Shown one piece after another: positions 31 through 44,543 of a stretch of DNA of 64,000 nt. Position numbers and translations under genes: made by a program. The DNA comes from an uncultured Thermoplasmatales archaeon. GTDB taxonomy: Archaea > Thermoplasmatota > E2 > UBA202 > DSCA01. Under the pieces are notes generated by a model that ran no database searches, was not told the origin of the DNA, and saw only the letters and a list, made by a program, of their open reading frames with translations. Where the stretch lies: the NCBI GenBank assembly GCA_964606745.1, contig CAZSHJ010000003.1, positions 4,806 to 68,805 on the forward strand, read 5' to 3'. How positions within the stretch are numbered: the stretch's first letter is position 1; each line of letters starts with the position of its first letter.

Positions 31-1077
31 ATGACAAATATCGCAGGAACAGATGCACACTATTACAATGCATCTTATTCCTTACAAGGCAATTATGAAT
101 ACTTCGTTTGGGCAAATGATACAAGTGGAAATGCAAATACATCGTCTACAAAAACATTTTCGATATTTGTTCCACAATACACCCTCACAACATATGTTGA
201 ACCATCAGGATATGGTTATATCACATTGAATCCATCCGGAGGAACATATGATGAAGGAATCATAGTTACGCTGACAGCCAATCCTGCTTCAGGATACGAA
301 TTCGACCATTGGAGCGGAGATGCAAGCGGAAGCAATCCAACAATACAAATTACAATGAATTCGAATAAAAGCATAACTGCACAATTTTTAGAGACAACTT
401 CACCAAATCATCCTCCAACTGTTGAACTAACTTCTCCAGCTAACGGTTCAATGATGAGTGGAACAGTAAGCATTGCAGGAGCTGCATCCGATACCGATGG
501 AACAGTTCAGAGCGTGCAGGTTAAAATTGATTCGGGCTTGTGGATAAACGCAACAGGAACTACATCATGGAATTATTCGTGGGATACCACTGCCGTTGCA
601 AACGGAAGCCATACCATTTATGCACGAAGCTATGATGGAACGAATTACTCAAACATTTCATCTTTAACAGTGAATGTAAACAACATTCCGCCAAATCATA
701 AACCAACAGTAGAAATCATCTTTCCAAATGATGGAATGGATGTTAAGAAAACATTTACCATTCACGGTACTGCAAGCGATGAGGATGGAGATGAAATTCA
801 GGTGGAGATAAAGATTGGTGACGGAAGTTGGAAAGTCGTTAATGGAACAACAACATGGAATTATACGTGGGATAGCACAAGTGTTGACAATGGAGAATAC
901 AGTATACAAGTAAGAAGTTATGATGGACATGAATATTCAAGCATTGACTCAATAATGGTTAAAGTGAATAATAAAAAAGAAGGCGGTGGTACTCCTGGCT
1001 TTGAATTTATTGCTTTGCTTGTAGCTCTGACTTCTGTGCTGATATGGGGGAGAAAAAGGAACGGCAATAAGTTTTAA
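31..1077 (+). CDS. Secreted surface protein with Ig/PKD-like repeats and a C-terminal PGF-CTERM archaeosortase sorting signal. The 5' end is truncated by the window edge.
   Basis: Repeated ~90-aa modules (TVELTSPANGS.../TVEIIFPNDG...; WNYSWDTT.../WNYTWDST...). The C-terminus GTPGFEFIALLVALTSVLIWGRKRNGNKF has a PGF motif, a TM helix and a basic tail. The ORF reaches the window edge with no upstream stop. Confidence 0.7.
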   Translation: MTNIAGTDAHYYNASYSLQGNYEYFVWANDTSGNANTSSTKTFSIFVPQYTLTTYVEPSGYGYITLNPSGGTYDEGIIVTLTANPASGYEFDHWSGDASGSNPTIQITMNSNKSITAQFLETTSPNHPPTVELTSPANGSMMSGTVSIAGAASDTDGTVQSVQVKIDSGLWINATGTTSWNYSWDTTAVANGSHTIYARSYDGTNYSNISSLTVNVNNIPPNHKPTVEIIFPNDGMDVKKTFTIHGTASDEDGDEIQVEIKIGDGSWKVVNGTTTWNYTWDSTSVDNGEYSIQVRSYDGHEYSSIDSIMVKVNNKKEGGGTPGFEFIALLVALTSVLIWGRKRNGNKF

Positions 1078-1083
1078 CCCTTC

Positions 1084-1575
1084 CTATCTCTTGTAACCTA
1101 TATTTCTCAAGAATTCCTTTCTATCTCTTATTTCATTATCGCCTTCAAAGCCCTTCGGCATGTAACCGTCGATGACTCCTATGATTCCTCTTCCTTTTTC
1201 ATTCCCAAACTCGCTTTCTGCAACCAGAACTTTCGTCGGGTTGGCGGTTGCACAGTAAATCCTGCAAACCTCCGGGGCATTCTTGATTGCGTTGAGTACA
1301 TTGATTGGAAAGCATTTTTCCATGAAAATGATGAATGAATGCCCTGCACCTATCCTCATAGCGTTCTCCATAGCCAGTTTTTTTAATCCTTCATCATTTC
1401 CCTCCGACCTGATTAGGCAGGGGCCCGATGCCTCACAGAATGCAATACCAAATTTTGCATTCGGGACATTCATCATTGCTTCGTACAAATCCTCCACGCT
1501 TTTTATAAAATGCGTCTGTCCAAGAATGAAATTCATATCTTCCGGCTTTTTAATATCCACTTCTTTTATTTCCAT
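1084..1575 (-). CDS. Conserved archaeal ~160-aa cytoplasmic protein. It may belong to the 'adenosine-specific kinase'-like family; function uncertain.
   Basis: Clean 163-aa ORF with conserved-looking blocks (CATANPTKVLVAE, GRGIIGVIDG). Family assignment is from memory only. Confidence 0.3.
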   Translation of the reverse strand: MEIKEVDIKKPEDMNFILGQTHFIKSVEDLYEAMMNVPNAKFGIAFCEASGPCLIRSEGNDEGLKKLAMENAMRIGAGHSFIIFMEKCFPINVLNAIKNAPEVCRIYCATANPTKVLVAESEFGNEKGRGIIGVIDGYMPKGFEGDNEIRDRKEFLRNIGYKR

Positions 1576-1783
1576 CTTGTCACCATAAATATATGTCCTT
1601 CGTGTTTTTAACTTTTTAATATTGGTATGAAATGATGACAGCTACCAATCTATTCGGAAGGAAAGAAAAAATAAAAATGGGGGCATTGGTATCTTCTCTT
1701 GGCCGGAGCATTCAATCTCTCTTTTCATTTATTATATTGATGGCGATTGTAATTGTGCAACTGTGCAAATTCGAAAAAGTATT

Positions 1784-2305
1784 TCATTCAGGCGGCAGGT
1801 AATCCTCCATAATCTCTACCACTTCTTTGCTTGTTTTCGCATTTCTGTATCTCTCCAGCGGCTCCTTGTTTAATTCAAGGAAGTGCGGCCCCCACTTGAA
1901 TTTATTCATCAACTTATTCGCCCCTTCCGTCGCTCCCAGAATATAGAGGGCAGCAGCAAAAGCCTCTGCGGTTGTGAGTCGGAGCGGTCTTCCGTAATTT
2001 ACGGGGTTTGCAGCAACGAGATAGGGCAAAGCCCTGGCATTTTCATTCCTTATTTTTGAGAACACTTCCTCGGCATTTTTCCATGAGCAATCTACCGATG
2101 TTATGCCCTCGAAATTTTTATCCTCATGTGATAAAGCCTTTTTCGAGAAAGGGCTGAGTAACAAATTGTCATGCGGAATCATTCTCAGATGTTTGACCAT
2201 GTTCACCATCCCGAATTTCGCAAGTTTTTTTGCCGTGCATTTTTTAGGGTCGTCCTGTCCGAGGTGGTATACGATTAAATCGTACTTTGTATGGTTGATT
2301 TCCAC
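1784..2305 (-). CDS. tsr3: Tsr3-like 16S rRNA aminocarboxypropyltransferase (DUF367).
   Basis: 173 aa. The N-terminal block YHLGQDDPKKCTAKKLAKFG and the block RLTTAEAFAAALYILG are typical of archaeal Tsr3. Confidence 0.65.
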   Translation of the reverse strand: MEINHTKYDLIVYHLGQDDPKKCTAKKLAKFGMVNMVKHLRMIPHDNLLLSPFSKKALSHEDKNFEGITSVDCSWKNAEEVFSKIRNENARALPYLVAANPVNYGRPLRLTTAEAFAAALYILGATEGANKLMNKFKWGPHFLELNKEPLERYRNAKTSKEVVEIMEDYLPPE

Positions 2306-2414
2306 GATGTTTTAACATCCATGCATTTATTAATTCTGCGAGGAAGTGAGTCCTTTCAAGAATCGAAAAGCCTTTTATGTCCAACAATCATAATTTCATA
2401 GGGAATAAGTAGCC

Positions 2415-3515
2415 TCATGTCTCATATCCCTTCTCTGCAAGCTTTTCTGGCAAATAGGTGTCCGTCACATAATCCAGACCGTATTTTGCCAGGGCCTGTT
2501 GTTCGGACTTCTTCTTCATCTTGAGCTGCAGTTTTATCTCGCTTTCCCAGAATTCATCGTGAAAGCGGGGGTCCGAAAGCTCTGACTTCAGGGCGGATAT
2601 ATCTTCGTTGGTCAAATCGTCTGTTGGAAGTTCATAGTTGAGGATATCGGAGGGTGTAATCCCGAGAAATTCTGCCGAGGGCGTCGCGAGATACTCGGAT
2701 ATATGTGCAGTTTTTATCGCTCCGTAGGCAACCGATGCAAATATGCGGTATGACCACGGATCGCCGTCAGTAAATACAATCACCGGCAGATTTTTTTCCT
2801 CGTTAATCCTTTTTATGAATCTCCTTGTTGAGCGGGCGGGTTGCCCCTTGAGGTGGACAAGTATGGCATTCTTTTCCTCGTCGAATCCGTTTTCCACCAG
2901 CCGGTCGAACATACCGCCGGTTTCTATGGCAATTACGAGTTTTGCGTTTGTATCCCTGATTTTCAGTTTCTCCCTCTCCACATTGTACGGTATGGAATAG
3001 CCACTGTCGCCGACATCATCCTGGCAGTGTATTCTCCTTTTTTCTCCCTTTCTTGTTATCTCTTCTACGCTCAGGTCACCCATCACTCTTGCCCCGTCCT
3101 CCTCCGGCCTCAGGCCCATATCCTCCCTCAACTTCTTCGTAAGTATTTCAAGGTCTTCTGCCAGCCGGTCGGAGTCGCCCTGTGAAGAAAATTTTCCCTC
3201 GCTCCACCCTTCTGAGATATAGTACATTTCCCTCAAAGTCGATGACTTGTGCTGCTCTATCATCTTTTTGATAAAGTCTATGGTATAGACAGTGCGGAGG
3301 AGCATGTACGCCCCGGGCAGGGATACGGCCGAGCGGGTGGACTTATTTCTTCCATATTTCCAGACCCTGTGTCTCTCATCAAATGCGATATTTGATTTTG
3401 TTCTAGAGGGTATTTCAAGCTCGGGTATCCTTGAATTGTCGAGGTCGTCGTATATTTCCCCGGCTATTTTCATCATTTCCTTTACAGCGGCCCTCCTGCG
3501 TTCTTCCATTGTCAT
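2415..3515 (-). CDS. top6A: DNA topoisomerase VI subunit A (Spo11-like).
   Basis: 366 aa. A winged-helix region is followed by a Toprim block [21 protein letters not shown]. The gene lies immediately downstream of top6B with stop and start 1 bp apart. Confidence 0.9.
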
Positions 3516-3516
3516 T

Positions 3517-5385
3517 TTAACTTCCCTCCCATTTTTCCGCTCCTATAACATTCACTGGATCGATTCCCCTTATGTACAAACTATTCTCGTCAAAATCTCC
3601 CTTCTCCATTCCGAGCATATGGAATGATAGTTCTCTCTTCTCGGCAGGCTTCAATCCATCTATTTTCCACATTATATACCCTCTTTTTATCTCGTCTGCC
3701 GCGGGGTTCACTCCTCCCAGCAATCCTTCATCTGGAAGGGCGGCATACAGTTCGAAACTCTGAATCTTGTTTTTGTAGTTCGTGATTGAAATGGTGCTCA
3801 CTATCTTTCCTTCCACGTACTGTACTCCATCATCAATCCATACGATATTCATTATTTTTGTGATGACACCCTCTATGGACGGGACGGCTTTTTCAAGTAC
3901 CTCCGATGATTTTTTTGCAATTTCGGGCAAAATTTGTGATATGAGCATGAATTTATTCTTTGCCTTCACCTTCTTTTTCTTCTTTGAGAGGTGGCTTTTC
4001 ATTTTCCGGGCGCACTGCCGCAGGGACAATTGTATCTCCCTCTCTATTTCGTCGATATTGGCAATTGCTTCTTTTGATTCCGACGTGAAGGGTATGTTCA
4101 CCGACGAAATGTGGACAAGTATTATAGCGGGACCGAAAGGAATGCCCTTTCCACTCCGTTGCTGCAGGCCGTAGTGGCGCCAGTCCATATTTTTTATTCC
4201 CTTGGTTATTACGCAGTCGCCCTCCTGGTAAAGAAGTGGAACACGGTTTGCAAATCTGAAGATTTCAACCCTCTCCTCGGATGGCAGATTTCCGCCGTAG
4301 ACTATGCCGGTCTCGACAAGAAAAGGAATACCAGAGTGTACGCTCGGGTTTCTCTTGTCGGTAGAGATGAATTCTGGGGAGAGTGTGTCCATTTCCTTTC
4401 TCAATCCTCTCTTTATCAGGATTTCTCCTATCGGGGAGAGGCAATCTGTTGGGGGGCCCATCAATTTAACTTTTTTGAAGGCATTGGCAACTTTTTTTGC
4501 ATTCTCAAGGGAAATCTTATTCGGGTTGAACGATTGGTCAAGTTCCGCAATCTCTATTATTTTTTTTGCCTTCTGAATACTGATTGATGAGAACTCGCCT
4601 GAAAGAAACGAGGTAAGTTTTCTCGCTTTTGTCTCCTTTGCCATCTTTATGAGTGTCCCGAGTTCTATCCCGTACGGATGGGGTTTTATTTCCCTCGGCT
4701 GGGATGGTAATTTGTCTGTAACTCTTTCAAAAACGGTTTCATTCCCGTTCGGTTCGATGAACGTTATCTCGGCATGGGGATTCACTATGGCGGTACTTCT
4801 GAGGTATCCGTATGCTGACTGCTTCCTGTTCCTTACGTACATTCCCCCCATCGACAGCTCTATCCGTGTTCCGCTGTTTCTCTCCCAGTGTGTCATCTCA
4901 TCATGCAGTATCTCCGGGCGATTCTTCTTTGTATCTATAACAAGGGTGCATCGATGGGCAGGGAAACCCTCCCCGATTTTTGATGTTACCACAGTCGGCT
5001 TGCCGGTTGTAAGCTGAGAGTAAAGCACGGCCGCTGATATTCCTATTCCTTGCTGCCCTCTTGATTGTTTTAGACTATGAAATCGAGAGCCGTAAAGAAG
5101 GCGGGCAAAAACGTGGGGTATCTGTTTCCTTACTATTCCGGGGCCGTTATCTTCAACTATTATGAGATATTCATTGTCACTTGTTTCCCGTATTTCAACG
5201 AATATATCGGGCAGTATTCCCGCTTCTTCACATGCATCTAGGGCGTTATCAACAGCCTCCTTTACTGAAGTTATCAAAGCCCTGGTCGAGGTGCCGAAAC
5301 CCAGTATCTGTTTGTTTCGTTCAAAAAATTCTGCTACGGATATTTTTCTTTGATTTTTGGCAAGTCCCTCTGCTATAGAATGCAT
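3517..5385 (-). CDS. top6B: DNA topoisomerase VI subunit B (GHKL ATPase).
   Basis: 622 aa. Bergerat-fold motifs [12 protein letters not shown] and [10 protein letters not shown] are present. The gene forms an operon with top6A. Confidence 0.9.
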
Positions 5386-26139: not shown

Positions 26140-28737
26140 CTACGGATATCCGCCTATTCTCAAGCTCGGGTCGCCCAGCAGAATCCACTGCTGCACGGCT
26201 TTTTCATCTATGGAATCCCATCCCAAGTCGGGGAACCACCAGCATTCGGGCAGTGTAAAGGACTTGAAGTGGCTGATGTAGCTGGTCTGGGTCTGGGCGT
26301 ATGCGGTACCCAGCATGTCATATTCATGCTCGCCGTACTGGCGGAAGAACTCCGAGGTAATCCAACCGTCTCCTGCCCCAACCGTACAGAACTCTCCTTC
26401 CCAGCCCCAGCCGAAGCCCGTGTTGCCCATGGATGCAATAGCTCCCGTTTCGGGCATCTTCACAATATACCAACTCCAGCATTCAGGTGTGGGCTGACCG
26501 TAGGTGTGCATGTAGATATTTTTACCGAAGAAGAGCAGGAAGAAGATATCCAGTACTGAGGGAACCAGTGACACGTTGAACAGGCTGTTGTGACAGCCAC
26601 CCACTACCACCACCGGATATTTACCCGTATTGGCCAGCTGCTTCATGGGAAATGCCGGAAATTGTATCCAGGGGAAGAATGGGGAAACCTGGGAAACTGT
26701 AAGGCCGTCCACCGAACCGTACTGTCGGTTGCCGGGTATGCCGGGATATTGGTCGCCCCAATACCCAGGGCTGCCGTGCCCGGAGAAAAAGGCGAAACCG
26801 TGACCCTGGCTGAAGGCCTCGATGATGTCAGTCTGACCGGTAAATCGGCCGTTGGATGTCCATACAATCTCCTGTTCAAACCGCTCCGGCATGTAGTAGA
26901 GGGCTCCTCCTCGACCGTGCAGGGACTTGGCACCGGTGACCCATTCGCCTTCATAATAGACCTCGGTGTGGTTGCGGTAGTCGTTGAACATCACCTCCCC
27001 GTTGCTGTTTTCTATCCACAGGTGTACGTCCGTGACGTTGCCGTAGGGCTGCGGGTCATAAGACTTGCCTCTGATGTGCAACACGCCGTCCATGTAAGAA
27101 ACGTTTGCCCACCAGAAAAGAGTGTTGCAGTACGCCTCGCTCTCGCTGGGGGTGTACGAATAGTCATCGCTGCCCAGGACATCGCCATCAGATATAGATA
27201 CGATTTCAGTAATAGGTGGGGCCGGATACCCATCTTGCAGGGCAGGATTGAGATGGTCGTCGTGGTTGAAATGCAGTTCGGTGTCGGCACCCCGGTCAAG
27301 GTCAACGTTAACCACGTCAGCTGGGCCAGTGTCGCCATCGTCGTTGGTGCTCTGGGCGTAAATGGTGTATTGTCCGTCGGGAAGACCCGTGGTGTCCCAT
27401 TGGAAGTCCATGTCATGCTGGTCAAGAAACCCGTCGCCGGACGCCACCATGACGCTCTCAAACCAGTCGGCATTGTAGGTAGTGGTCTCGTAAGTGATAA
27501 TCTTATTCACCACGTCCTTAACCTCCTGGACGTTCCGGCAGGCCAGCCGGCCCACGGCTACATCCGGGTATAGGTCTGTAACATCCTCCGGGGCACCTGT
27601 CTCGTCGGTCCATTCGGCAAAGATGCCGTTGCCGTTGCTGTCCCAGTCCTCAAATGCACCCCCTGTCTTGTAGATGTCGGCGTAATACAAGTCGCAGGGA
27701 TAACCGGGCTCTCCGGACACCAGATTTGAATATCTTACGGGTACGTGCCATCCCTGAACTCCGCAGTTGGCATTGTCACGGGGCTTGGCATACAACAAGG
27801 ACTTGAGTCCGCCGGCTAGGATAACGTATTTAATGCCCCAAGACTCGATGGCGTCTTTGATGAAATATTTAATTTTCTCTGGCTCATCCACACCGTCATA
27901 CTGGGCGTAGATGTCCTCGGTGGTTTGGAGAAGGGTTGTAATGCCCATGCTGGTCTTGTGGTCCGCCAGCCACTGCAGTTCGGAGGAAAAGATTTGAGGG
28001 GCAATTATCACCAGGTCGTAGGCGCCGGCACGGGTAAGAGTGACGGCGGGTGAATCGTAAGTGATATGCATATCAGCACCGTCGGCCACATACAGCAGGT
28101 TATCTCCCGGTATATAGCGGACGGGGTAGAGGTTAACGGTTACGTAGGTGACATGCTCCATCTCTCCGTTCAGTCCGCAGCCCACGTTGTAACTGTACCA
28201 TGCGGCGGGGAACGGCTGATGGCTGTTATATAGTGAAATATCTTTTCCGGGCGGCGCGTACCCTTCAATGGGGGATAGGGGCATGGGTGCCGGAGCAGGG
28301 AGAACCTGATCCTGAACGGACTGCTCGTGTATACCGCGTGGTTCCACGGCCACTCTGACATTGCGTACTCCGAAGGGCAGTTGGAAGGTCTGTACCGTGC
28401 GGGGAAGCAGGGGCTTGCCAGGGTTAAGGAGGTAGTCTGTTCCATCACACTCCAGCCGGATATATCCGTCCGTACCTCTGGTGGAGGTAACTGATGAAAA
28501 ATCAATGGTTGCAGTGCGGGGGGCATACATGCCAGACGGCGATGTGCGGTAATCCGTCCCGTGGTTCACGGAAACAGCGGCTGCCCCCAGCCCACCCAAA
28601 ACAATCATGTACACAACGGCAATAGCGAGTATTTTTTTCATAATATCACATGCATATATCGGCTGCTGACTATTAAAAATTTTGTTGGTTGATAATTGAA
28701 AGGCATTATTGGGAAAACTCAATTTTAGAATTGTCAA
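26140..28737 (-). CDS. Secreted clan-CD (C25/gingipain-like) peptidase-like protein, paralog 2. GC-rich, with a ~230-aa Ig-like insertion.
   Basis: 865 aa with a signal peptide. SGHGSPGYWG and VVVGGCHNS His/Cys blocks are present. Blocks EKIKYFIKDAIESWGIKYVILAGG, DWDSNGNGIFAEW...YPDVAVGRLACRN and the C-terminal LLGDPSLRIGGYP are shared with paralog 1. GC is markedly higher than in its neighbours. Confidence 0.6.
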   Translation of the reverse strand: MTILKLSFPNNAFQLSTNKIFNSQQPIYACDIMKKILAIAVVYMIVLGGLGAAAVSVNHGTDYRTSPSGMYAPRTATIDFSSVTSTRGTDGYIRLECDGTDYLLNPGKPLLPRTVQTFQLPFGVRNVRVAVEPRGIHEQSVQDQVLPAPAPMPLSPIEGYAPPGKDISLYNSHQPFPAAWYSYNVGCGLNGEMEHVTYVTVNLYPVRYIPGDNLLYVADGADMHITYDSPAVTLTRAGAYDLVIIAPQIFSSELQWLADHKTSMGITTLLQTTEDIYAQYDGVDEPEKIKYFIKDAIESWGIKYVILAGGLKSLLYAKPRDNANCGVQGWHVPVRYSNLVSGEPGYPCDLYYADIYKTGGAFEDWDSNGNGIFAEWTDETGAPEDVTDLYPDVAVGRLACRNVQEVKDVVNKIITYETTTYNADWFESVMVASGDGFLDQHDMDFQWDTTGLPDGQYTIYAQSTNDDGDTGPADVVNVDLDRGADTELHFNHDDHLNPALQDGYPAPPITEIVSISDGDVLGSDDYSYTPSESEAYCNTLFWWANVSYMDGVLHIRGKSYDPQPYGNVTDVHLWIENSNGEVMFNDYRNHTEVYYEGEWVTGAKSLHGRGGALYYMPERFEQEIVWTSNGRFTGQTDIIEAFSQGHGFAFFSGHGSPGYWGDQYPGIPGNRQYGSVDGLTVSQVSPFFPWIQFPAFPMKQLANTGKYPVVVVGGCHNSLFNVSLVPSVLDIFFLLFFGKNIYMHTYGQPTPECWSWYIVKMPETGAIASMGNTGFGWGWEGEFCTVGAGDGWITSEFFRQYGEHEYDMLGTAYAQTQTSYISHFKSFTLPECWWFPDLGWDSIDEKAVQQWILLGDPSLRIGGYP

Positions 28738-34455: not shown

Positions 34456-34528
34456 GGGCCCGTGGGGTAGCTTGGCATCCTTCCAGCTTGGGGTGCTGGT
34501 AACCCGAGTTCAAATCTCGGCGGGCCCA
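34456..34528 (+). tRNA. tRNA-Pro(GGG).
   Basis: 73 nt. Acceptor stem GGGCCCG/CGGGCCC is followed by discriminator A. Anticodon stem CCAGC/GCTGG has loop TTGGGGT (anticodon GGG, G37). T-arm CCGAG-TTCAAAT-CTCGG. Confidence 0.8.
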
Positions 34529-34844
34529 TTTCTATTTTTATCTGGCATTTGTATTTGCCCATGCATTAGCGGCTGGCTGATTTAAAAGCGCGGAGGGAGG
34601 TGCTGAATCCCACGATAAATTTTATGGTTGGAGAAGGGATTCCGCCAGCTCTCCTCTTCGTAAGAAGCCCCGCCATTCATGGCGGGGAGTATGTCACTTG
34701 TTCATTCGTCATTTGTGTGAGGATGCGCCAGTCGCTATAAGGAGAAAGGGATTTACTGAGTGTGCCTAAAACGCACATTTTCCGCTCTTTTTTGTTACTT
34801 TCCGAAGTACTGATAAAATCGATAAATTTATAATAAGTTATTGT

Positions 34845-35774
34845 TTGATACCAAATAGGATGGGAAAGATGGATATCAGGGATTACAAATCTGGTATAGC
34901 TAATTCCTTAGATATAAAAACTATTGATAACATACTCATTAAGTTGATAGTATCAGAAAAAGAAGATGACGTTAACTGCGATTATTATATGATTGAATGT
35001 TATGAAGACGATATCCGGGAAGAAGATTTTTTACGAGCTTTAGTTAATATGATTCCCCATTATGCATTAAAAAGGGAAAAATTGGATTCTCTTTCGAAGG
35101 AAAATTTTATGAAACTCAGTAAAGAAGCTTTAAGAAGATTTGTTAGAACTGAAAACTCGGGGGAAATTGGAGAACTACTGATCTTTATTTTATTAGAGGC
35201 CGAAAGGAAGGCTTCTCAATTGATAAATAAAATGGTTTTGAAGACTTCTGGGGGTGTTCACGTTTATGGTCTTGACGGAATACATATTGGGGTTCTTGAC
35301 GATGATGTTGTTCTATACTATTGTGAATCCAAAACTTACAAAGATTTAAACAAGGGCATAAATGCTGCAATATCTGATTTGGATAAATTTCATCAGGACA
35401 ACATAAAAGAAGCCTTCGAATTAGAGCTTGTTAGCGATAATATAGATGAAAAAAAGTTTGAGGGAATCAAAGATAAACTTTTGGAATTATTAGATCCTTA
35501 TACAGAAATAGATAAGAGTCACTTTAAAAAGAAATATGCAATTTTTATTGGATTTGATTGGGCTAATATCAAATCATTTAATTTTAGGCCACCTATAAAA
35601 AATATCGAAGGGAAATTATGTAAATGCCTAAAAACTGATTCCAAAACAATTTGTAATAGATGCAAATCACTTGTTGATAAAAAAACAATCAATCGTTCTG
35701 TAGATATTTTCTTTTTGCCTTTTAAGGATTCTAAAAAAATAAATAGAGATTTCGTTAGGGAGATAAAATCATGA
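34845..35774 (+). CDS. PD-(D/E)xK nuclease-fold protein, a HamA-like (DUF1837-like) candidate.
   Basis: 309 aa. GELLIFILLE...GLDGIH...VLYYCESKTYKD fits the D...ExK pattern. Its stop overlaps the start of the helicase gene. Confidence 0.45.
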   Translation: MIPNRMGKMDIRDYKSGIANSLDIKTIDNILIKLIVSEKEDDVNCDYYMIECYEDDIREEDFLRALVNMIPHYALKREKLDSLSKENFMKLSKEALRRFVRTENSGEIGELLIFILLEAERKASQLINKMVLKTSGGVHVYGLDGIHIGVLDDDVVLYYCESKTYKDLNKGINAAISDLDKFHQDNIKEAFELELVSDNIDEKKFEGIKDKLLELLDPYTEIDKSHFKKKYAIFIGFDWANIKSFNFRPPIKNIEGKLCKCLKTDSKTICNRCKSLVDKKTINRSVDIFFLPFKDSKKINRDFVREIKS

Positions 35775-38329
35775 ACCAGGGTTGGTATCAAGAATTGAGC
35801 AACCGAATAACTTCAAATGATGAATTCATTGGGGATTATCTTGAATTATCAAGGCATTTTTTCAATAATAAGCAAAATAGTCTGTCATCAAAAACCCTTA
35901 AAAGACTTATGGAGAGTGCTTCAATTTTTGCTTGCTCCTCAGAGGAAACCCATAAAAGATTGGCTTTAAAGATTGCTGGCTCAGTTATGGAGGCTGATAT
36001 TGATAATGAAGCCTTAACTGCAGCGTCTGAGTTAATATTTTTAAGATTAGGCAATTTTCCATTAATAAGAATGGCTATAGAAAAATATGAAATGAAAGAT
36101 TTTTTTAGCATTTACAATGGAAATAGACCATTGACTACTCTCTCCCTAAACTATGAACTCACCAACAAGGTTATATCAAATCAAATAGTTATCGGGAAAA
36201 ATATTGAATTATTTACAGATTTTCAATCGAATGTAATAAAATTTTTAAGTGAAAAAGAAGATCTTTCTATTTCTGCTCCTACTTCAGCAGGAAAATCTCA
36301 TGCGTTGAAATCCTTTATTATTCAATCCCTTTTGACAAAAGAAAGATTTGTAGTGGTTTATTTGGTGCCAACCAGGGCACTCATAACTCAGGTACAGAAA
36401 GAAATCAGACAATCATTTAATGAATACTCCATAACTGATGCTGAAATTTTCACCTCTTCTTGGGAAGTGGTCGGGGAGGGAAAACATGAATTTTCTAAAG
36501 CAGTTATAATTTTAACGCAGGAGCGCCTACAAACTATAGAGGGAAGGACAGATAATTTTCAAGTGGATTTTCTTGTTGTTGATGAAGCTCAAAATATTGA
36601 AAAGGGTAGTCGAGGAATTACCTTAGAAGATAGTATTATGCAACTAATTGAATGGAACCCAGATTTTCAAATTGTATTTATATCTCCTTTTAGTAAAAAT
36701 CCAAAAAAATTTGGTGAGATATTCTCTTATGAAACTAAAGACATTATAACAAAACTTACGCCGGTAAGCCAAAATATTCTTTACGTCAATATTGATGGTA
36801 AAAAAATTACTATTAAACAAGTTTCACAGGAATTAGAAAAAATTCTAGATATGGCAGAATATGATGGTGAAAAATCCCTTCCTAAAGTTGGATATAAAAG
36901 AAAATCTTGGGTTGCGTTAAATCTTGTTGATGGCAACTCTACACTAGTTTATTGTGATGGGGCTCATGATTGTATAAGAACTGCACATTATCTTGTAGAT
37001 AATGCCAAAAATGCATCACTAAATAATAAAGAACTTGATGACGCTGGTAATTTTCTAGCTTCTTATATTCACCCACAATATTATCTTGTCGATTTCATCA
37101 AGAAAGGAGTTGGTTATCACTATGGAAACATGCCAGCTTCTGTACGGACTATTGTAGAATCACTGTTTAAAAAGAGATTAATTAATTCTGTGTGCTGCAC
37201 AAGTACATTATTAGAAGGCGTTAACTTTCCAGCAAAGAATATTATTTTGTACAGACCGAAAGTCGGTTTGAAAAACCCTATGGACAAGTTGGGATTTTTA
37301 AATTTAGCTGGACGAGCTGGGAGATTGATGGAAGATTTTGTGGGTAATATTTACTGTATTAACCCCCAAGAATGGAGGGATGGTTATACCCCAAAATCAA
37401 CACCAGAAGACCATGAAATTGGAAGCTCTATGGAAGATGTTGTAAAGAAGAAAAAAGATGAAATTATTAGTCATTTGAAAAAGTATGTAAAGAAAAGAGA
37501 TAATGAAGATGTCATGGTAGCAGTCACTAGATTTTTGGTAAATGAAATTAGAAAAGGAAACAAAGAGTTTGTGAAAAATCTGTTGCAACGTGATAAAGAA
37601 ATTCGAAAACAAGACCTAGATGACATTGTTAAAATGGTTAAACAAATTGTAAGTGAAATAGAATTAGATGGTAAAATTATTATTAAAAATAGGGCTATTG
37701 ACCCCAGATTACAGAATAGATTGTACTTGCACCTTCAAAAAATGGACGAACCTCCTTTGCCCCTTCATCCATCAAATTTTGAATTTTATGAGTCTTTGTT
37801 AAAAATATTAAGTGTAACTAACGAGATATTCCAGAGGAAAAAACCCGAAAATTCGTTAAAATTCACAGCTTGGCTTTCAAAGTCATGGTCAAACGAGGAA
37901 CCTTTAAATGAAATTATCAAACAAAGAATCTCGTATAAATCCAAAAACACTCAACTTACAAAGAAGAAAATCAATGATATAATAGAAGATGATATTATTA
38001 AACATATCAATCATAGAATAAGATACGAGGTAGTTAGGGATTTTAGTTGTTATATCTCTATACTTAAATATGTATTAGAAGAAAAAGATGGGGTGCCTGA
38101 ACATTTTGATGAGAAAGTACCATATTATTTGGAAATTGGGGCAAGTACACCCACCACGATCACTTTAATCAATAACGGCATTCCAAGATCGCTTGCATTA
38201 TTATTTTCTGAGCATCTGCCTGAAGATTTACAGGATTTTGAACTTTGCAAGAAATATATTGAGCAAAATGAAAGTTATATCAAACAAAAAATCTCACCCG
38301 CCTTATACAAAGAATTAGTATTGTTTTAA
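35771..38329 (+). CDS. Ski2/Hel308-like SF2 helicase, a HamB-like candidate.
   Basis: 852 aa with motif I ISAPTSAGKSHAL, motif II FLVVDEAQNI, GVGYHYGNMP (an HHAGL-like motif), CTSTLLEGVNFPAKNIILY and motif VI NLAGRAGRLMED. Confidence 0.55.
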   Translation: MNQGWYQELSNRITSNDEFIGDYLELSRHFFNNKQNSLSSKTLKRLMESASIFACSSEETHKRLALKIAGSVMEADIDNEALTAASELIFLRLGNFPLIRMAIEKYEMKDFFSIYNGNRPLTTLSLNYELTNKVISNQIVIGKNIELFTDFQSNVIKFLSEKEDLSISAPTSAGKSHALKSFIIQSLLTKERFVVVYLVPTRALITQVQKEIRQSFNEYSITDAEIFTSSWEVVGEGKHEFSKAVIILTQERLQTIEGRTDNFQVDFLVVDEAQNIEKGSRGITLEDSIMQLIEWNPDFQIVFISPFSKNPKKFGEIFSYETKDIITKLTPVSQNILYVNIDGKKITIKQVSQELEKILDMAEYDGEKSLPKVGYKRKSWVALNLVDGNSTLVYCDGAHDCIRTAHYLVDNAKNASLNNKELDDAGNFLASYIHPQYYLVDFIKKGVGYHYGNMPASVRTIVESLFKKRLINSVCCTSTLLEGVNFPAKNIILYRPKVGLKNPMDKLGFLNLAGRAGRLMEDFVGNIYCINPQEWRDGYTPKSTPEDHEIGSSMEDVVKKKKDEIISHLKKYVKKRDNEDVMVAVTRFLVNEIRKGNKEFVKNLLQRDKEIRKQDLDDIVKMVKQIVSEIELDGKIIIKNRAIDPRLQNRLYLHLQKMDEPPLPLHPSNFEFYESLLKILSVTNEIFQRKKPENSLKFTAWLSKSWSNEEPLNEIIKQRISYKSKNTQLTKKKINDIIEDDIIKHINHRIRYEVVRDFSCYISILKYVLEEKDGVPEHFDEKVPYYLEIGASTPTTITLINNGIPRSLALLFSEHLPEDLQDFELCKKYIEQNESYIKQKISPALYKELVLF

Positions 38330-38444: not shown

Positions 38445-38588
38445 CCGTCTCGCTCCCCCCTACTTGTGCGTTCCTGTGAAACCCCCCTACTATATGTATA
38501 TAGATATATAATAGGAATTAGTAAAACATTTCCGGCGAGTGTGTAACGATCGGGAGCGGACAGGCACCAATCAACAGATAGAAACACC
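38445..38588 (+). repeat. Intergenic repeat family R, copy 1 (3' portion).
   Basis: CTTGTGCGTTCCTGTGAAACCCCCC...TATATGTATATAGATATATAATAGGAATT...CAACAGATAGAAACACC followed by a T-run. It is about 85% identical to the copy at 44365. Confidence 0.7.
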
Positions 38589-38865
38589 AATATTTTTTTA
38601 CAATAAGGTCGCCTATTGTAGAAAAGGGGCGGAAATGTACCGGAAATTTTATTTTTGCTGAGCGGTAATGAGCAAATAGTGAGAGGATTGAATGCAGTAT
38701 TCATTATCTTTTATTCCCTCAAACTTTCGATTTTTTCCTCCACTGTAGCAGAATTTTATAATATTTTGCAACCCGTATTTACCACCCGTTTTGCTCGCCA
38801 CCCAAAACCCGAAGATTCGCCAGACCATAAACCAATACTTTTTTAAATAATGTAGTAATATAAAA

Positions 38866-39354
38866 TTGTTTAACATGTTATCCAACACGACAAAGGAGAA
38901 TGCAACGCAAACGGATATGGAAGAATTAGGGCAGTGTAAATTTTGCTCTATGATTAAAAACAAAAGAAATTATGATACTTTCATTACTGAATTAAATTAT
39001 GGCTATGTTTTTCTTAATCCAAATCAATCTTATAAAGGTCGAGTAATATACATACTTAAAGAGCACATCGAAGATTTTACCGAAGTTGATAACGATTTGT
39101 TTTTAAATTTCTGTGGAGAAATGAAGCAGATTGCAAAAATAACTAAACAAACTTTACAGAATCCCCTAATAAACGTTGCTATCCTCGGTAACAAAATTAA
39201 ACATCTGCATTGGCACATAATTCCAAGATATAAGTACGATAGTCGGTGGAATGGACCCCCTTGGCCAATTGATACAAAATTATTGAATCCTGACGAGTAT
39301 AAGGAATTGGCACTTTTGATAGGGGGGAAATTGAAGGTACTTAAAAATGACTGA
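38866..39354 (+). CDS. HIT-family nucleotide hydrolase/transferase.
   Basis: A histidine triad HLHWHIIPRY plus an N-terminal Cys pair (CKFCS). Confidence 0.7.
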   Translation: MFNMLSNTTKENATQTDMEELGQCKFCSMIKNKRNYDTFITELNYGYVFLNPNQSYKGRVIYILKEHIEDFTEVDNDLFLNFCGEMKQIAKITKQTLQNPLINVAILGNKIKHLHWHIIPRYKYDSRWNGPPWPIDTKLLNPDEYKELALLIGGKLKVLKND

Positions 39355-40354
39355 AATAATAAGATATAGAAAAACACCCGTTGGTTTGAATGATATCGGA
39401 AAATTTCCAGCATTGGAGGGAAACTGGAATTACTCTTACAAGAGTCTAAAAAATTTAAATCTTGCTTTCAACGAAAAATTAGATATAGACTCGGAAAAAA
39501 CATCAATTGTGCTAATGGGGTCTTTTGGTAGATATGAAGCATGCCCGTTTTCAGATATAGATTTAGTTGTTGTTTCAAATGAAAAAGAAACTGAGATAAA
39601 AAAAATAAGAAGTAACGCTTTAAAAATTGGTCGAGAATTGAGATTTTTAGCACCTAATCCTAAAGGCGTTTTTAGCCAAGTTAAACCAATCGATTCTTCA
39701 ATACGGGATATTGGAAGCCATAAAGTTGACGATAGTTTTCAGCTATCGCAAAGACTCTTATTGCTAATGGAATCAACACCTGTCTGGAATAAGACATTCT
39801 ATGATGAAATCATCGATAGATTGCTCGAGAGATACTCTTATTATGTAATCGAGGAACCGAAAAAAGAGCAGATATTCCTATTGAATGACACCATCAGATA
39901 TTTTCGCACAATTTGTGTCAATTACCAACACTCTTTTTGGAAAGAAAACGAAAAATGGGCTATTAGAAATATTAAATTAAATCATAGCAGAATTATTATG
40001 TTTGCAGGACTATTATTTCTCATTCTTAACTCCAGCAAAAATAGAACAGACAAAGTGAACTATATGAAATCCCACATGAAATTAACCCCACTAGAACGAA
40101 TCATCCATGTCTATAATGATAACAATGATACAAATGTTGAAAGAGTTGTTGGTTCATACAATGTTTTTCTTGGAAAAATGAGTGATAAGAATATTCGAAA
40201 TAGTCTAAATATTGATTACGTAAATCGGTATTTAAATCCAATATATGCTGAATTAAAAGTCAACGCATGTTTATTGACGGCTGAGCTAACACGCTTTATA
40301 TTTTCTATGATGGGTCACTGGACGAATAGCATATTTGAATATCTTATTTTTTAA
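39347..40354 (+). CDS. Pol-beta-superfamily nucleotidyltransferase (GlnE/DUF294-like or CD-NTase-like) with a C-terminal helical domain.
   Basis: LMGSFGRYEACPFSDIDLVVV matches the GS...DxD NTase motif. The gene overlaps the HIT gene by 8 bp. Confidence 0.5.
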   Translation: MTEIIRYRKTPVGLNDIGKFPALEGNWNYSYKSLKNLNLAFNEKLDIDSEKTSIVLMGSFGRYEACPFSDIDLVVVSNEKETEIKKIRSNALKIGRELRFLAPNPKGVFSQVKPIDSSIRDIGSHKVDDSFQLSQRLLLLMESTPVWNKTFYDEIIDRLLERYSYYVIEEPKKEQIFLLNDTIRYFRTICVNYQHSFWKENEKWAIRNIKLNHSRIIMFAGLLFLILNSSKNRTDKVNYMKSHMKLTPLERIIHVYNDNNDTNVERVVGSYNVFLGKMSDKNIRNSLNIDYVNRYLNPIYAELKVNACLLTAELTRFIFSMMGHWTNSIFEYLIF

Positions 40355-40850: not shown

Positions 40851-41037
40851 CAATAAATTCGGTTCTGGTGCAATTCCGGGTCTTTTCTCTCCACAAACGT
40901 TACGCCGTCCCACTTGTGCGTTCCTGTGAAACCCCCCCCACCATATACACATATATATGTTATAGGAATCTTAATTTCATTGCCGTTTGCCGGCACGCCA
41001 ATGCAGGGGACGTGAGGGTGTTCAACAGATGTAAAAC
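40851..41037 (+). repeat. Intergenic repeat family R, copy 2 (full length).
   Basis: ATAAATTCGGTTCTGGTGCA...CACAAACGTTACGCCGTCCCACTTGTGCGTTCCTGTGAAACCCCCC...TATA-rich...TTCAACAGATGTAAAACCC followed by TTGATTTTTT. Confidence 0.7.
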
Positions 41038-41285
41038 CCTTGATTTTTTAAGAATAGCCTTCTCATCTTCTCCAACAAAGAAAATCTTTTGTACTCGTCC
41101 TTTGACCTGTGCAAATGTCCAGGAAATACTCCGAGTTTGTTATATTCACTGAAAGCACCTTCGCTTTCTGGGTGCTCTTTCTCCATCTCATTTTTTATTT
41201 TAGCAAACAGGGTATGGAGCTGAATTAATTCTTCTTTTTGCATCCTGTCACGGTGGGATAAATAAATTTGGTTTAGAATGTGCAA
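41022..41285 (-). CDS. Hypothetical small protein.
   Basis: 87-aa ORF that overlaps the 3' end of repeat R2. Confidence 0.3.
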   Translation of the reverse strand: MHILNQIYLSHRDRMQKEELIQLHTLFAKIKNEMEKEHPESEGAFSEYNKLGVFPGHLHRSKDEYKRFSLLEKMRRLFLKNQGFYIC

Positions 41286-41884
41286 TGTCCAAACTCTGGA
41301 GGATTTCCAATCTTTCCGTACAACACAGTAATCCTTCCTAACACTTCATCTATTAAAGATTGATCATTATTCATCCACTTCAAATCATTTTTTAATTCGT
41401 CGTGAATACTTTCACAATCTACCGCAACAGCATCTTCTTTAGCAATGACACAAAAATAAAACTGCACATCACCATTTATCTTGTACTCATTTCCACCCAT
41501 ATCGCCAGTTACGGGATTGAACAGGAGTTTCTCTGAAAAATTATTTCTTGCTTTAAAATAGTCCACGAATTTATAAAAGTCACCCTGATAATAAGGGTAA
41601 TTAGAATGTTTTAGCTCTACAAATGCTGTTATCTCCCCGCCCTTACATATTAGGTAGTCTGGAGAATAGTGCCCCAAGTTTAACAAGGTAGGCTTTGCAA
41701 ATAATTCATACCCATCTTTCTCGATGTTTTTTATTAGGTAATGGCCCAAACGAAAGTCCAGGTCGCCTTCATAGGCTATTTTTCCATCCTCATAGTATCG
41801 TTTAATATCTTCATTCCATATCTTCAAAATCACTGTTTTAATCATAGAATTTTCATCATGCATATAGTTTAATCCTGTTTCCAA
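41273..41884 (-). CDS. Hypothetical protein with a possible PD-(D/E)xK nuclease motif.
   Basis: 203 aa. HYSPDYLICKGGEITAFVELKHS fits a PD...ExK pattern. Confidence 0.35.
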   Translation of the reverse strand: METGLNYMHDENSMIKTVILKIWNEDIKRYYEDGKIAYEGDLDFRLGHYLIKNIEKDGYELFAKPTLLNLGHYSPDYLICKGGEITAFVELKHSNYPYYQGDFYKFVDYFKARNNFSEKLLFNPVTGDMGGNEYKINGDVQFYFCVIAKEDAVAVDCESIHDELKNDLKWMNNDQSLIDEVLGRITVLYGKIGNPPEFGHCTF

Positions 41885-41908: not shown

Positions 41909-42025
41909 GGGTTCTGTTTCAAATACAGGTCTTTTCCCTGCACAAACGTTACGCCATCATACTTGCGGGTACTGTGAAACCCCCCCGCTATATGTATATA
42001 GATATATTATGGGAATTAGATTACT
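41909..42025 (+). repeat. Intergenic repeat family R, copy 3 (5' and TATA portion, diverged).
   Basis: GGGTTCTGTTTCAAATACAGGTCTTTTCCCTGCACAAACGTTACGCC...CTGTGAAACCCCCCCGCTATATGTATATAGATATATTATGGGAATT. Confidence 0.65.
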
Positions 42026-44364: not shown

Positions 44365-44543
44365 GGTTCTGGTGCAAATACAGGTCTTTTCCCTTCACAA
44401 ACGTTACGCCGTCCTACTTGTGCGTTCCTGTGAAACCCCCCTGTTATATGTATATAGATATATAATAGGAATTGATAAAACGTTTCCGGCGTGTGTGTGG
44501 CGATTGGGAGCTGACGGACACCATTCAACAGATGTAAAACCCC
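44365..44543 (+). repeat. Intergenic repeat family R, copy 4 (full length).
   Basis: GGTTCTGGTGCAAATACAGG...CTTGTGCGTTCCTGTGAAACCCCCCTGTTATATGTATATAGATATATAATAGGAATT...TTCAACAGATGTAAAACCCC followed by ATTATTTTT. Confidence 0.7.

Follow-up and report, generated by a model that had tools for sequence, protein, structure and literature searches.

A conserved HIT hydrolase–nucleotidyltransferase gene pair from an uncultured Thermoplasmatales archaeon and its relatives with other hydrolase partners

Introduction

Nucleotidyltransferases (NTases) are known in combination with hydrolases that act against them, as in GlnD, where the NTase is joined to a removing hydrolase, an HD domain. A comparable writer and eraser are encoded side by side in the case of the AMPylase SidM (DrrA) and the de-AMPylase SidD (PMC12409994), while the histidine triad (HIT) protein ThsC, an accessory component of type II Thoeris in PADLOC, has been hypothesised to be the off-switch of a nucleotide signal (PMC8565338), and the TULA/Sts proteins pair a 2H phosphoesterase domain, acting on RNA 2',3'-cyclic phosphate, with a histidine phosphatase (PMC10253181). 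PADLOC also includes 145 candidates (PDCs) that were selected for their location inside BREX, DISARM or type I restriction-modification (R-M) loci; listed there is the two-gene candidate PDC-M70 (FAM_01459>>FAM_02243, count 32) (Payne et al. 2024, 10.1101/2024.01.29.577857).

Here we analyse two overlapping genes, encoding a HIT hydrolase and a Pol-beta NTase, in a stretch of 64,000 nucleotides (the window) from an uncultured Thermoplasmatales archaeon (assembly GCA_964606745.1, contig CAZSHJ010000003.1, positions 4,806 to 68,805). The two genes form a genuine and conserved module. Its general type, in which a hydrolase opposes an NTase, is known; this combination of partners is undescribed. 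An original prediction, made from the letters of the window without database searches, had suggested that the pairing may be a new arrangement; this holds for the HIT–NTase combination and not wholly for the NTase family, already catalogued as PDC-M70A. A literature search returned nothing on HIT–NTase defence pairs, PDC-M70 or a HIT de-AMPylase.

Results

A HIT gene lies directly upstream of the NTase gene in relatives of the window's clade

The HIT gene (38866..39354, + strand; 162 aa from TTG 38866 in the list of open reading frames, ORFs) and the NTase gene (39347..40354, + strand; 335 aa from an ATG start in the same list) overlap by 8 bp (ATGACTGA, 39347..39354, + strand), with the HIT stop codon lying within the NTase start region (AAA AAT GAC TGA / ATG ACT GAA), an overlap that implies co-transcription and translational coupling. 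The ORFs, the Pfam matches and the junction letters bear out the HIT protein with the motif HLHWHIIPRY and the overlapping 335-aa NTase with the motif GS-x10-DID that had been read from the sequence. The spacing between the two genes ranges from -46 to +58 bp in relatives.

The original prediction had made its case depend on the HIT gene being conserved beside the NTase in homologous loci, and it is, since a HIT gene lies directly 5' of the NTase gene in 12/12 relatives of the window's NTase clade with usable upstream sequence (41-50% identical; the HIT–NTase loci of this clade include L003, L014, L015, L029, L038, L041, L042, L044, L045, L046 and the P0015 locus). The sole locus of this clade without a detected HIT gene, L023, is on a contig of 3.1 kb. 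To the same clade, likewise with a HIT gene directly upstream, belong the loci of P0005, P0009, P0016, P0017 and P0019, and a second, phylogenetically separate NTase clade has the order HIT–histidine phosphatase–NTase (L004, L012, L024, L025, L053 and L054). In all, the HIT partner is found in 19 independent loci from bacteria and archaea, distributed over two separate NTase clades, and the pairwise divergences of HIT and NTase proteins are correlated (r=0.73, Mantel p~2e-4, n=16). HIT and NTase are inherited together and form a functionally linked pair.

The NTase family adjoins four types of hydrolase

In the approximately 55 homologous loci that were examined, the NTase almost always adjoins, or is fused to, a nucleotide-phosphoester hydrolase. 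Four types of partner, HIT and HD among them, take this place, the commonest being a histidine phosphatase, alone or joined by a 2H phosphoesterase. A classification of 37 loci from species-representative genomes, based on HMMs (hidden Markov models) built from recurrent neighbours, identified the NTase with both a histidine phosphatase (His_Phos_1) and a 2H phosphoesterase in 17/37 loci, His_Phos_1 with the NTase in 7/37, HIT, His_Phos_1 and the NTase in 4/37, and HIT with the NTase in 4/37; in the remaining 5/37 the NTase is alone or the contig is truncated. Every locus with a 2H protein (17/17) also encodes a histidine phosphatase, and HIT and 2H never occur together. The identities of these partners follow from Pfam (His_Phos_1, 6e-29; 2_5_RNA_ligase2, 6e-7), and their characteristic residues are invariant, i.e., RHG...H in the phosphatase and both HxT motifs in the 2H protein. 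The phosphatase is nearest CobC and PhoE, while the 2H protein has a faint match to Acb1 (E 0.089). One locus, L002, had been considered as a fusion of phosphatase and 2H; this was ruled out, as it holds two separate ORFs.

In the NTase phylogeny, the HIT–NTase loci form a grade beside the clade with the order NTase–phosphatase–2H, and the HIT–phosphatase–NTase loci form a separate clade nested among loci with the order phosphatase–NTase–2H; HIT thus took over the position of 2H in two lineages. An NTase relative 45% identical to that of the window carries the NTase–phosphatase–2H triad, and in a more distant one (25% identical), found on a Mycobacterium plasmid, the HIT gene is convergent and the neighbours are type I R-M genes (hsdR/hsdS) and an OLD-like ATPase. 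In L041, a divergent His_Phos_1 gene (3659-4294, - strand) is located just 5' of the HIT gene, and this locus may be an intermediate between the HIT–phosphatase–NTase and HIT–NTase architectures. In the window itself, tblastn with all C1/C2 members found no hidden histidine phosphatase or 2H gene. Neither in the window nor in any of the approximately 55 loci does an effector gene adjoin the NTase or form a fusion with it, in agreement with the original prediction that no effector is fused or adjacent, and no sensor gene is conserved in these loci.

The HD partner is represented by three fusions of 664-691 aa with an N-terminal HD domain (P0214, P0263 and P0271) and by the 4.5-kb Escherichia coli plasmid pISHS7_5 (NZ_CP092257.1; L049/L051), which has a ColE1/Rop backbone and, as its sole cargo, an HD gene (4155..684, crossing the origin of the record) and an NTase gene (711-1706; PDC-M70A, 5e-54). 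This NTase looks solitary in the PLSDB table because the HD gene spans the record origin; the gene is present in RefSeq. The plasmid HD protein is 33% identical to the N-terminal half of the fusions (E 5e-27), and its match to the PADLOC dGTPase model (8e-9) indicates a SAMHD1/dGTPase-like protein. The HD–NTase module is found in 1/5,426 complete E. coli genomes.

The NTase remotely resembles protein AMPylases in predicted fold and is catalogued as PDC-M70A

The motif G58-S59-x10-D70-I-D72, a third acidic residue (E142) and a match to Pfam NTP_transf_2 (PF01909; 31.1 bits against a cut-off of 21) place the NTase in the Pol-beta superfamily, the catalytic lobe comprising G58, S59, G61, R62, S69, D70, D72 and E142. 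The AlphaFold2 model (mean pLDDT, predicted local distance difference test, 93.9; pTM, predicted template modelling score, 0.93) has an alpha/beta catalytic lobe followed by an all-helical region (residues 149-334), so that the helical C-terminal half anticipated from the sequence is recovered; this domain is basic and strongly conserved, and ends in FEYLIF.

The top four Foldseek matches of the model are DrrA/SidM (6yx5_B) and GlnE (3k7d and 1v4a), with probability 1.00 over 341-359 columns; the template modelling (TM) scores are 0.44 for DrrA (E 1.6e-5; 15% sequence identity), the best match, and 0.47-0.50 for GlnE. These protein AMPylases are the sole full-length structural neighbours, with a lower-scoring tier of aminoglycoside NTases (AadA, ANT(4'), KNTase), MntA and HalB, and no member of the NTase family is among the solved structures. 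Profile matches point the same way, with DUF294 at E 0.044, N-terminal regions of GlnD at 1.5e-4 and weaker, and SidM_N weakly for one relative; none of the weak GlnD/DUF294-type matches of the NTase comes near its curated threshold. By predicted fold and by motif, the NTase groups with GlnE, GlnD, DrrA and DUF294 proteins. With the former two it has the signature GSxGRxE...SDxD in common, and the logic of NTase plus nucleotidyl-removing hydrolase is like that of GlnD, HD fusions being present also in the window NTase's family. However, the window NTase is a single domain pair of 335 aa without an ACT or second NTase domain, the HD of its fused relatives is dGTPase/SAMHD1-like, and its family is mobile and patchy whereas GlnD and GlnE are housekeeping proteins. 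The NCBIfam GlnD models reach 14-20 bits against cut-offs of 519-1299, over residues ~38-87 only, and a housekeeping GlnE/GlnD identity is ruled out (~20 bits against cut-offs of 500-1300). A grouping with GlnE/GlnD, named in the original prediction as speaking against it, is therefore found for fold and motif but not for housekeeping membership.

The same prediction had left both the CD-NTase and the GlnE/DUF294 families open. The GlnE/DUF294 option stands by fold and motif, while a CD-NTase is dismissed by Foldseek, in which CdnE appears at rank 29 or lower with a probability of <=0.12, and by PADLOC, in which the match to a cyclase (E 0.0017, 15.7 bits) covers only the catalytic core (residues 38-90). 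The closest match of all is the PADLOC model PDC-M70A (PDLC04778; E 3.6e-41), matched end to end (residues 20-335 on positions 19-355 of a 355-position profile), and equally by the E. coli, Mycobacterium and HD-fused relatives (E ~1e-52 to 1e-55). The Mycobacterium copy beside hsdR/hsdS is in line with the type I R-M provenance of this candidate. Neither the window HIT nor any HIT, histidine phosphatase, 2H or HD partner matches the PDC-M70B models, so that the HIT–NTase pair shares with PDC-M70 the A component only. MntA, PDC-S09 and PDC-M05A give weak matches to the core.

The family is widespread, patchy and catalytically invariant

A word-indexed search retrieved 197 NTase homologues from Bacteroidota, Desulfobacterota, Acidobacteriota, Cyanobacteria, Planctomycetota, Bathyarchaeia, Nitrososphaerota and others, the best after the identical sequence being 49% identical, and the nearest relatives of this apparently archaeal NTase, at that identity, are bacterial. 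An exhaustive profile search of 1.84 billion representatives gave 696 clusters at E<=1e-30 and 2,135 at E<=1e-3, the family size of ~700 referring to clusters at 50% identity; a metagenome scan with the single NTase protein gave one locus. The patchy distribution, with nearest relatives in other phyla or domains, makes inter-domain horizontal gene transfer (HGT) evident from the sequences. No member was found in INPHARED phages or IMG/VR contigs, and the best match among BFVD structures has E 0.065; on these negatives a virus-carried module is rejected.

Over 43 diverse members, ~35 residues are invariant, including the catalytic G58-S59, D70-I-D72 and E142, the C-terminal FEYLIF and many Arg/Lys, and 20 signature positions are unchanged in every locus regardless of the partner, which implies the same substrate in bacteria and archaea.

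The HIT protein belongs to an NTase-associated subfamily

The HIT domain (Pfam PF01230, 46.9 bits against a cut-off of 21.5, E 4.6e-12) carries the motif H96-L-H98-W-H100-I-I-P-R-Y, and the protein is thereby a true member of the HIT superfamily. Public gene calls start the gene at ATG 38875 (159 aa), and homologues start just before a conserved C-x-F-C, which favours ATG 38917 (145 aa); the true start is likely one of these two codons rather than TTG 38866, which is simply the first possible one.

A search with the single HIT sequence gave two matches, and an alignment-based profile search was used instead, which identified 85 subfamily members, many of them sharing a contig with an NTase of the family. 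Conserved in the subfamily are N36-Q37, G41-R42, N86, G91-N92, L97-H98 and P103-R104-Y105, together with a C-terminal tail D-x-x-W-G-x-x-x-P. The nucleophile position, H98, is invariant in 28/28 sequences; position 100 is His in 25 and Gln in 3 of these, and His at position 96 occurs solely in the window's subtype. The AlphaFold2 model (pLDDT 90.8) has a Hint/Fhit-like fold, nearest to uncharacterised HIT proteins from structural genomics (TM 0.70-0.74) and, among characterised enzymes, to Fhit, to an Ap3A hydrolase and to the Ap4A phosphorylase Rv2613c; Aprataxin, GalT and DcpS are not among its top 50 structural matches.

As a check from the HIT side, four new subfamily members on long contigs were looked up. 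Two lie in HIT–phosphatase–NTase loci, one next to an integrase and a gene of the dCTP-deaminase family, the other between dnaN and gyrB; a third, of type-1-like HIT, is without an NTase neighbour (L052), and the weakest of the four matches is a generic HIT protein. In the second of these loci (L053, 4001-6019), the trio is placed within the replication-origin cluster, between dnaA-dnaN and gyrB, and the NTase is shortened to 258 aa.

HIT-type cassettes are found mostly among mobile and defence genes

Loci of the HIT type adjoin serine recombinases, a relaxase, type IV secretion system genes, ArdC, nSTAND NTPases and integrases, as well as SymE, DCD, an OLD-like ATPase and R-M systems of the MmeI type and of type I. 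Ham genes are absent from all homologous loci, and a role of the pair as a component of the Hachiman system next to it in the window is for this reason rejected; judged by its sequence neighbourhoods, the HIT–NTase cassette is autonomous and horizontally mobile, and not part of Hachiman. Integration linked to tRNA genes was also rejected, a tRNA gene being nearby in 1/16 loci. In two loci from Bathyarchaeia metagenome-assembled genomes (L014 and L015), the pair is flanked by giant WD40-repeat proteins of 1,229-1,457 aa, which resemble the STAND/WD40 conflict proteins of multicellular prokaryotes.

The pair forms its own cassette in a composite island

The spacer between hamB and the HIT gene measures 537 bp and holds one copy of a dispersed intergenic repeat of ~110-130 nt that is present in the window as four direct copies, with the core CTTGTGCGTTCCTGTGAAACCCCCC and a TATA-like 3' end, TATATGTATATAGATATATAATAGG. 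The copies on either side of the pair are a partial one upstream (38459..38521, + strand; the 3' ~65 nt, ending in TATATGTATATAGATATATAATAGG) and one downstream (40861..40972, + strand) in direct orientation relative to it, and the third and fourth lie at 41910-42019 (+ strand) and ~44365-44475 (+ strand). The 25-mer core has 3 exact occurrences in the window against 0 expected by chance. Bracketed in this manner, the HIT–NTase pair constitutes its own cassette inside a composite island, and the repeat copies, which delimit the island modules, may harbour promoters or serve as recombination or insertion sites. Just 5' of the candidate HIT starts are A/T-rich, TATA-box-like elements (38842..38865, + strand; TTTAAATA at 38842-38849 and AATATAAAA at 38857-38865), read from the sequence as a putative archaeal promoter.

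Upstream of the pair, HamA (34845-35774; Pfam 1.4e-47) and HamB (35771-38329; PADLOC 2.7e-186) constitute, by their profile matches, a true Hachiman system, so that the Hachiman-like module and the island setting of the original prediction are upheld, the GC content across 36-42 kb being 0.32-0.37 against 0.40-0.47 in the flanks. A tRNA-Pro gene (34456-34528) precedes hamA. Downstream, a minus-strand two-gene unit is followed by an AsnC-type regulator, an amino-acid permease and TruA, i.e., housekeeping genes. The unit (41022-41884) encodes a UPF0058 protein of 87 aa (Pfam 7e-15) and a protein of 203 aa whose only match, to the restriction-endonuclease-like HSDR_N, is weak; it is bracketed by two repeat copies and could be a third island module.

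An Rfam search around the pair identified only the tRNA-Pro gene and a sub-threshold HgcC-like match, neither adjoining the pair. The latter (34593-34710, + strand; 38.5 bits against a gathering score of 50, E 4.5e-6) is located directly 3' of tRNA-Pro and 5' of hamA. Within the window, only this match, the UPF0058 gene and the TATA-like elements hint at archaeal ancestry. A GC-rich stretch (0.54) at 26140-28737 on the - strand holds an 865-aa ORF without a relative among solved structures; it is not rRNA, Rfam finding none in the window.

Discussion

We tentatively read the HIT–NTase pair as a self-contained, co-translated make-and-break nucleotidyl-transfer module, an interpretation that we hold to be a serious possibility just short of probable. 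The NTase would bind NTP-Mg2+ through G58-S59, D70, D72 and E142, as its intact catalytic residues and fold suggest, and would move the nucleoside monophosphate (NMP) onto an acceptor held by the conserved, basic, helical C-terminal domain. Given the HIT motif and the Hint/Fhit-like fold, His98 of the HIT protein would then attack the alpha-phosphate of the NMP-linked product to give a covalent His-NMP, releasing the acceptor and subsequently the NMP, which would make the modification or product reversible and self-limited. The alternative partners, a histidine phosphatase with or without 2H, or HD, would reach the same end by other chemistry; as the partners interchange and HIT replaces 2H, they may all have an equivalent role towards a single NTase product. 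The substrates of 2H enzymes are ribose-linked phosphates, of which a cyclic or terminal phosphate is left behind, which would explain the obligatory phosphatase beside 2H, and HIT would free NMP directly, which would explain why HIT-only cassettes like that of the window are without a phosphatase. Both window enzymes look active by their complete catalytic signatures, and the cycle of nucleotidylation and de-nucleotidylation originally proposed is still the most parsimonious reading.

For the acceptor, a nucleotide type (a ribose OH or a phosphate of a nucleotide or RNA end) is favoured by the partner chemistries, since 2H, dGTPase-like HD, Fhit-like HIT and CobC/PhoE-like phosphatases act on such substrates; we give it about an even chance. 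A protein hydroxyl, as may be suggested by analogy with the structural neighbours GlnE and DrrA, is rather unlikely, and a small molecule is less likely again.

Several observations weigh against a make-and-break module. The likeness of the NTase to GlnE and DrrA is remote (TM 0.44-0.50), and the two lines of evidence on the acceptor disagree, the fold pointing to protein AMPylases and the partner chemistry to nucleotide-type substrates. Where a histidine phosphatase is the sole partner (7 loci), it is unable to cleave a phosphodiester, so that the term 'eraser' does not fit every partner, and we know of no HIT enzyme that cleaves protein-AMP or RNA 3'-phosphodiesters. Partnerless NTases (L006, L020 and L023) retain all catalytic residues, for which reason they were also ruled out as decayed toxins. 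A type-1-like HIT protein (L052) is without an NTase neighbour and, with the generic HIT protein noted above, makes the HIT–NTase association strong yet not absolute. Moreover, many triad loci are found in housekeeping or biosynthetic settings (UbiA, CtaA, ilvC, pyrG), so that a conflict role is not general. On plasmid pRspBT04e of Rhizobium sp. BT04 (L050, 3875-5570), the NTase and a histidine phosphatase belong to a same-strand cluster with two glycosyltransferases, two MFS transporters, a HAD hydrolase and an AAA ATPase, a gene content that looks biosynthetic rather than defensive. Finally, the literature search found no biochemical or genetic experiment on any member of the NTase family. 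In L052 (2662-4411), the gene for the HIT protein, which is 42% identical to that of the window, overlaps by 8 bp a 448-aa squalene-hopene-cyclase-like/prenyltransferase-like gene, with a phage integrase close by.

Adjacency by chance of unrelated genes in a gene-dense island would be conceivable given how common HIT and NTase domains both are and given the L052 HIT protein without an NTase, but the 8-bp overlap, the recurrence in 19 independent loci of both domains of life and the co-divergence of the two proteins effectively refute it. Judged by context, a conflict function, defence or addiction, is the most likely role of the cassette. Among readings of this kind, it is improbable that the NTase makes a nucleotide second messenger on infection (a di- or oligonucleotide or a dinucleoside polyphosphate) for an effector located elsewhere or unrecognised, with HIT, 2H plus phosphatase, or HD as the off-switch. 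The proximity of the HIT fold to Fhit, Ap3A hydrolase and Ap4A phosphorylase, the faint Acb1 match of 2H, the weak cyclase matches and many invariant basic residues of the NTase, the degradation of a signal hypothesised for ThsC (PMC8565338) and the oligonucleotide signals made by HalB (PDB 9dbh), a non-CD-NTase weakly matched in Foldseek, all accord with such a signal; yet the approximately 55 loci are without a conserved effector or sensor gene, the NTase fold is not CD-NTase-like, and a constitutively co-translated degrader would quench the signal. With the Pol-beta core, helical C-lobe and defence-island setting the likeness extends to the CD-NTases of CBASS, which is rejected for want of a CD-NTase profile or fold and of a Cap effector in any locus; and the window HIT weakly matches the ThsC2 model (2.3e-7, 28.7 bits), while type II Thoeris is rejected, the neighbours being HamA/HamB and the NTase, with no ThsA or ThsB/TIR genes nearby. 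We consider it unlikely, too, that the family is an effector-less enzymatic toxin–antidote or immune module, in which the NTase product or NTP consumption would arrest growth or a virus and the hydrolase would be the antidote, a logic similar to that of DarT/DarG but exerted by nucleotidylation. In MntA–HepT (type VII toxin–antitoxin, TA; PDC-M05/PDC-S09), too, a Pol-beta NTase belongs to a small, mobile cassette of two genes; MntA, however, is a minimal NTase of ~100-140 aa that AMPylates a HEPN partner, and such an identity is rejected on the 335-aa size, helical domain and hydrolase partner of the window NTase, on a score of 15 bits against the MntA cut-off of 60, and on the lack of any HEPN gene in the window. 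Less likely than the second-messenger and toxin–antidote readings is an attack on the nucleotide pool in which the enzymes are themselves the effector, cycling NTP to NMP or nucleoside plus PPi or making a toxic nucleotide analogue against viruses: the dGTPase match of the HD partner, the HIT–phosphatase–NTase locus that abuts a dCTP-deaminase-family gene, the lack of any other effector and the invariance of NTase residues across the domains of life, suggestive of a universal small substrate, would all fit, but there is no sign of a regulator or sensor, without which a futile cycle would be harmful to the host, and partnerless, catalytically intact NTases occur.

Two further explanations lead away from signalling and toxicity. 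In RNA 3'-end healing or tailing, as repair of ribotoxin damage or a counter-measure to it, to which we assign an outside chance, 2H would open a 2',3'-cyclic phosphate, the phosphatase would remove the phosphate and the NTase would re-extend the end, with HIT or HD as substitutes. In class II CCA-adding enzymes, an HD domain provides cyclic phosphodiesterase and phosphatase activity, and on U6 3' ends an NTase and a 2H protein (TUT1/USB1) act as a pair. The coupling of 2H to a histidine phosphatase in 17/17 loci, as expected of a cyclic phosphodiesterase followed by a phosphatase, and the invariant HxT and RHG...H residues conform to such a pathway, as does the 2H–phosphatase pairing of TULA/Sts (UBASH3), where the 2H domain acts on RNA 2',3'-cyclic phosphate (PMC10253181). 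TULA/Sts proteins consist of the same two enzyme types as the commonest partners of the family, but there the domains are fused and no NTase is present, whereas the window cassette has HIT instead of both. RNA healing is further opposed by the dissimilarity of the NTase to CCA-adding enzymes, poly(A) polymerases and TUTases beyond a 74-residue core (Foldseek), the absence of a ligase, kinase or RNA-binding partner, the lack of an established role of HIT in 3'-end healing, and the absence of 2H and phosphatase from the window-type cassette. Somewhat more doubtful is an ordinary metabolic or resistance pair, unconnected with conflict, in which the NTase would nucleotidylate a small molecule, whether an antibiotic, a metabolite or the precursor of a cofactor, in a pathway that also involves the hydrolase or phosphatase. 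The Rhizobium cluster, the housekeeping neighbours of many triad loci, the aminoglycoside NTases in the second structural tier and the CobC/PhoE-like phosphatase speak for it, and against it stand the patchy, HGT-like spread with nearest relatives in other phyla or domains, the placement of HIT-type cassettes mostly among integrases, R-M, conjugation and defence genes, the module as sole cargo of a 4.5-kb plasmid, and the occurrence of the family embedded in defence loci, the basis of the PDC candidates.

The make-and-break module that we tentatively favour would resemble SidM/SidD in its adjacent writer and eraser, and differs in that SidD has a PP2C-like and not a HIT fold and in that DrrA is secreted to act on eukaryotic targets and has additional GEF and P4M domains. 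If true, the make-and-break reading would define a family of enzymes, with ~2,100 members at E<=1e-3, that is so far uncharacterised, and provide a natural experiment in which four unrelated hydrolase families (HIT, 2H plus histidine phosphatase, and HD) were recruited to the same invariant NTase; the bond made by the NTase must then, if the inference from the partners is right, be cleavable by all of them. It could lead to a new nucleotide product or macromolecular modification, to the first HIT-type 'eraser' or to a new mobile defence or addiction module common to archaea and bacteria. Under a toxin–antidote reading, 2H plus histidine phosphatase would correspond, in prokaryotes, to the TULA/Sts immune regulators of eukaryotes. 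The survey of partners gives PDC-M70A a concrete genomic grammar, and should the family prove metabolic, it would be a warning against reading PDC-M70A matches as defence.

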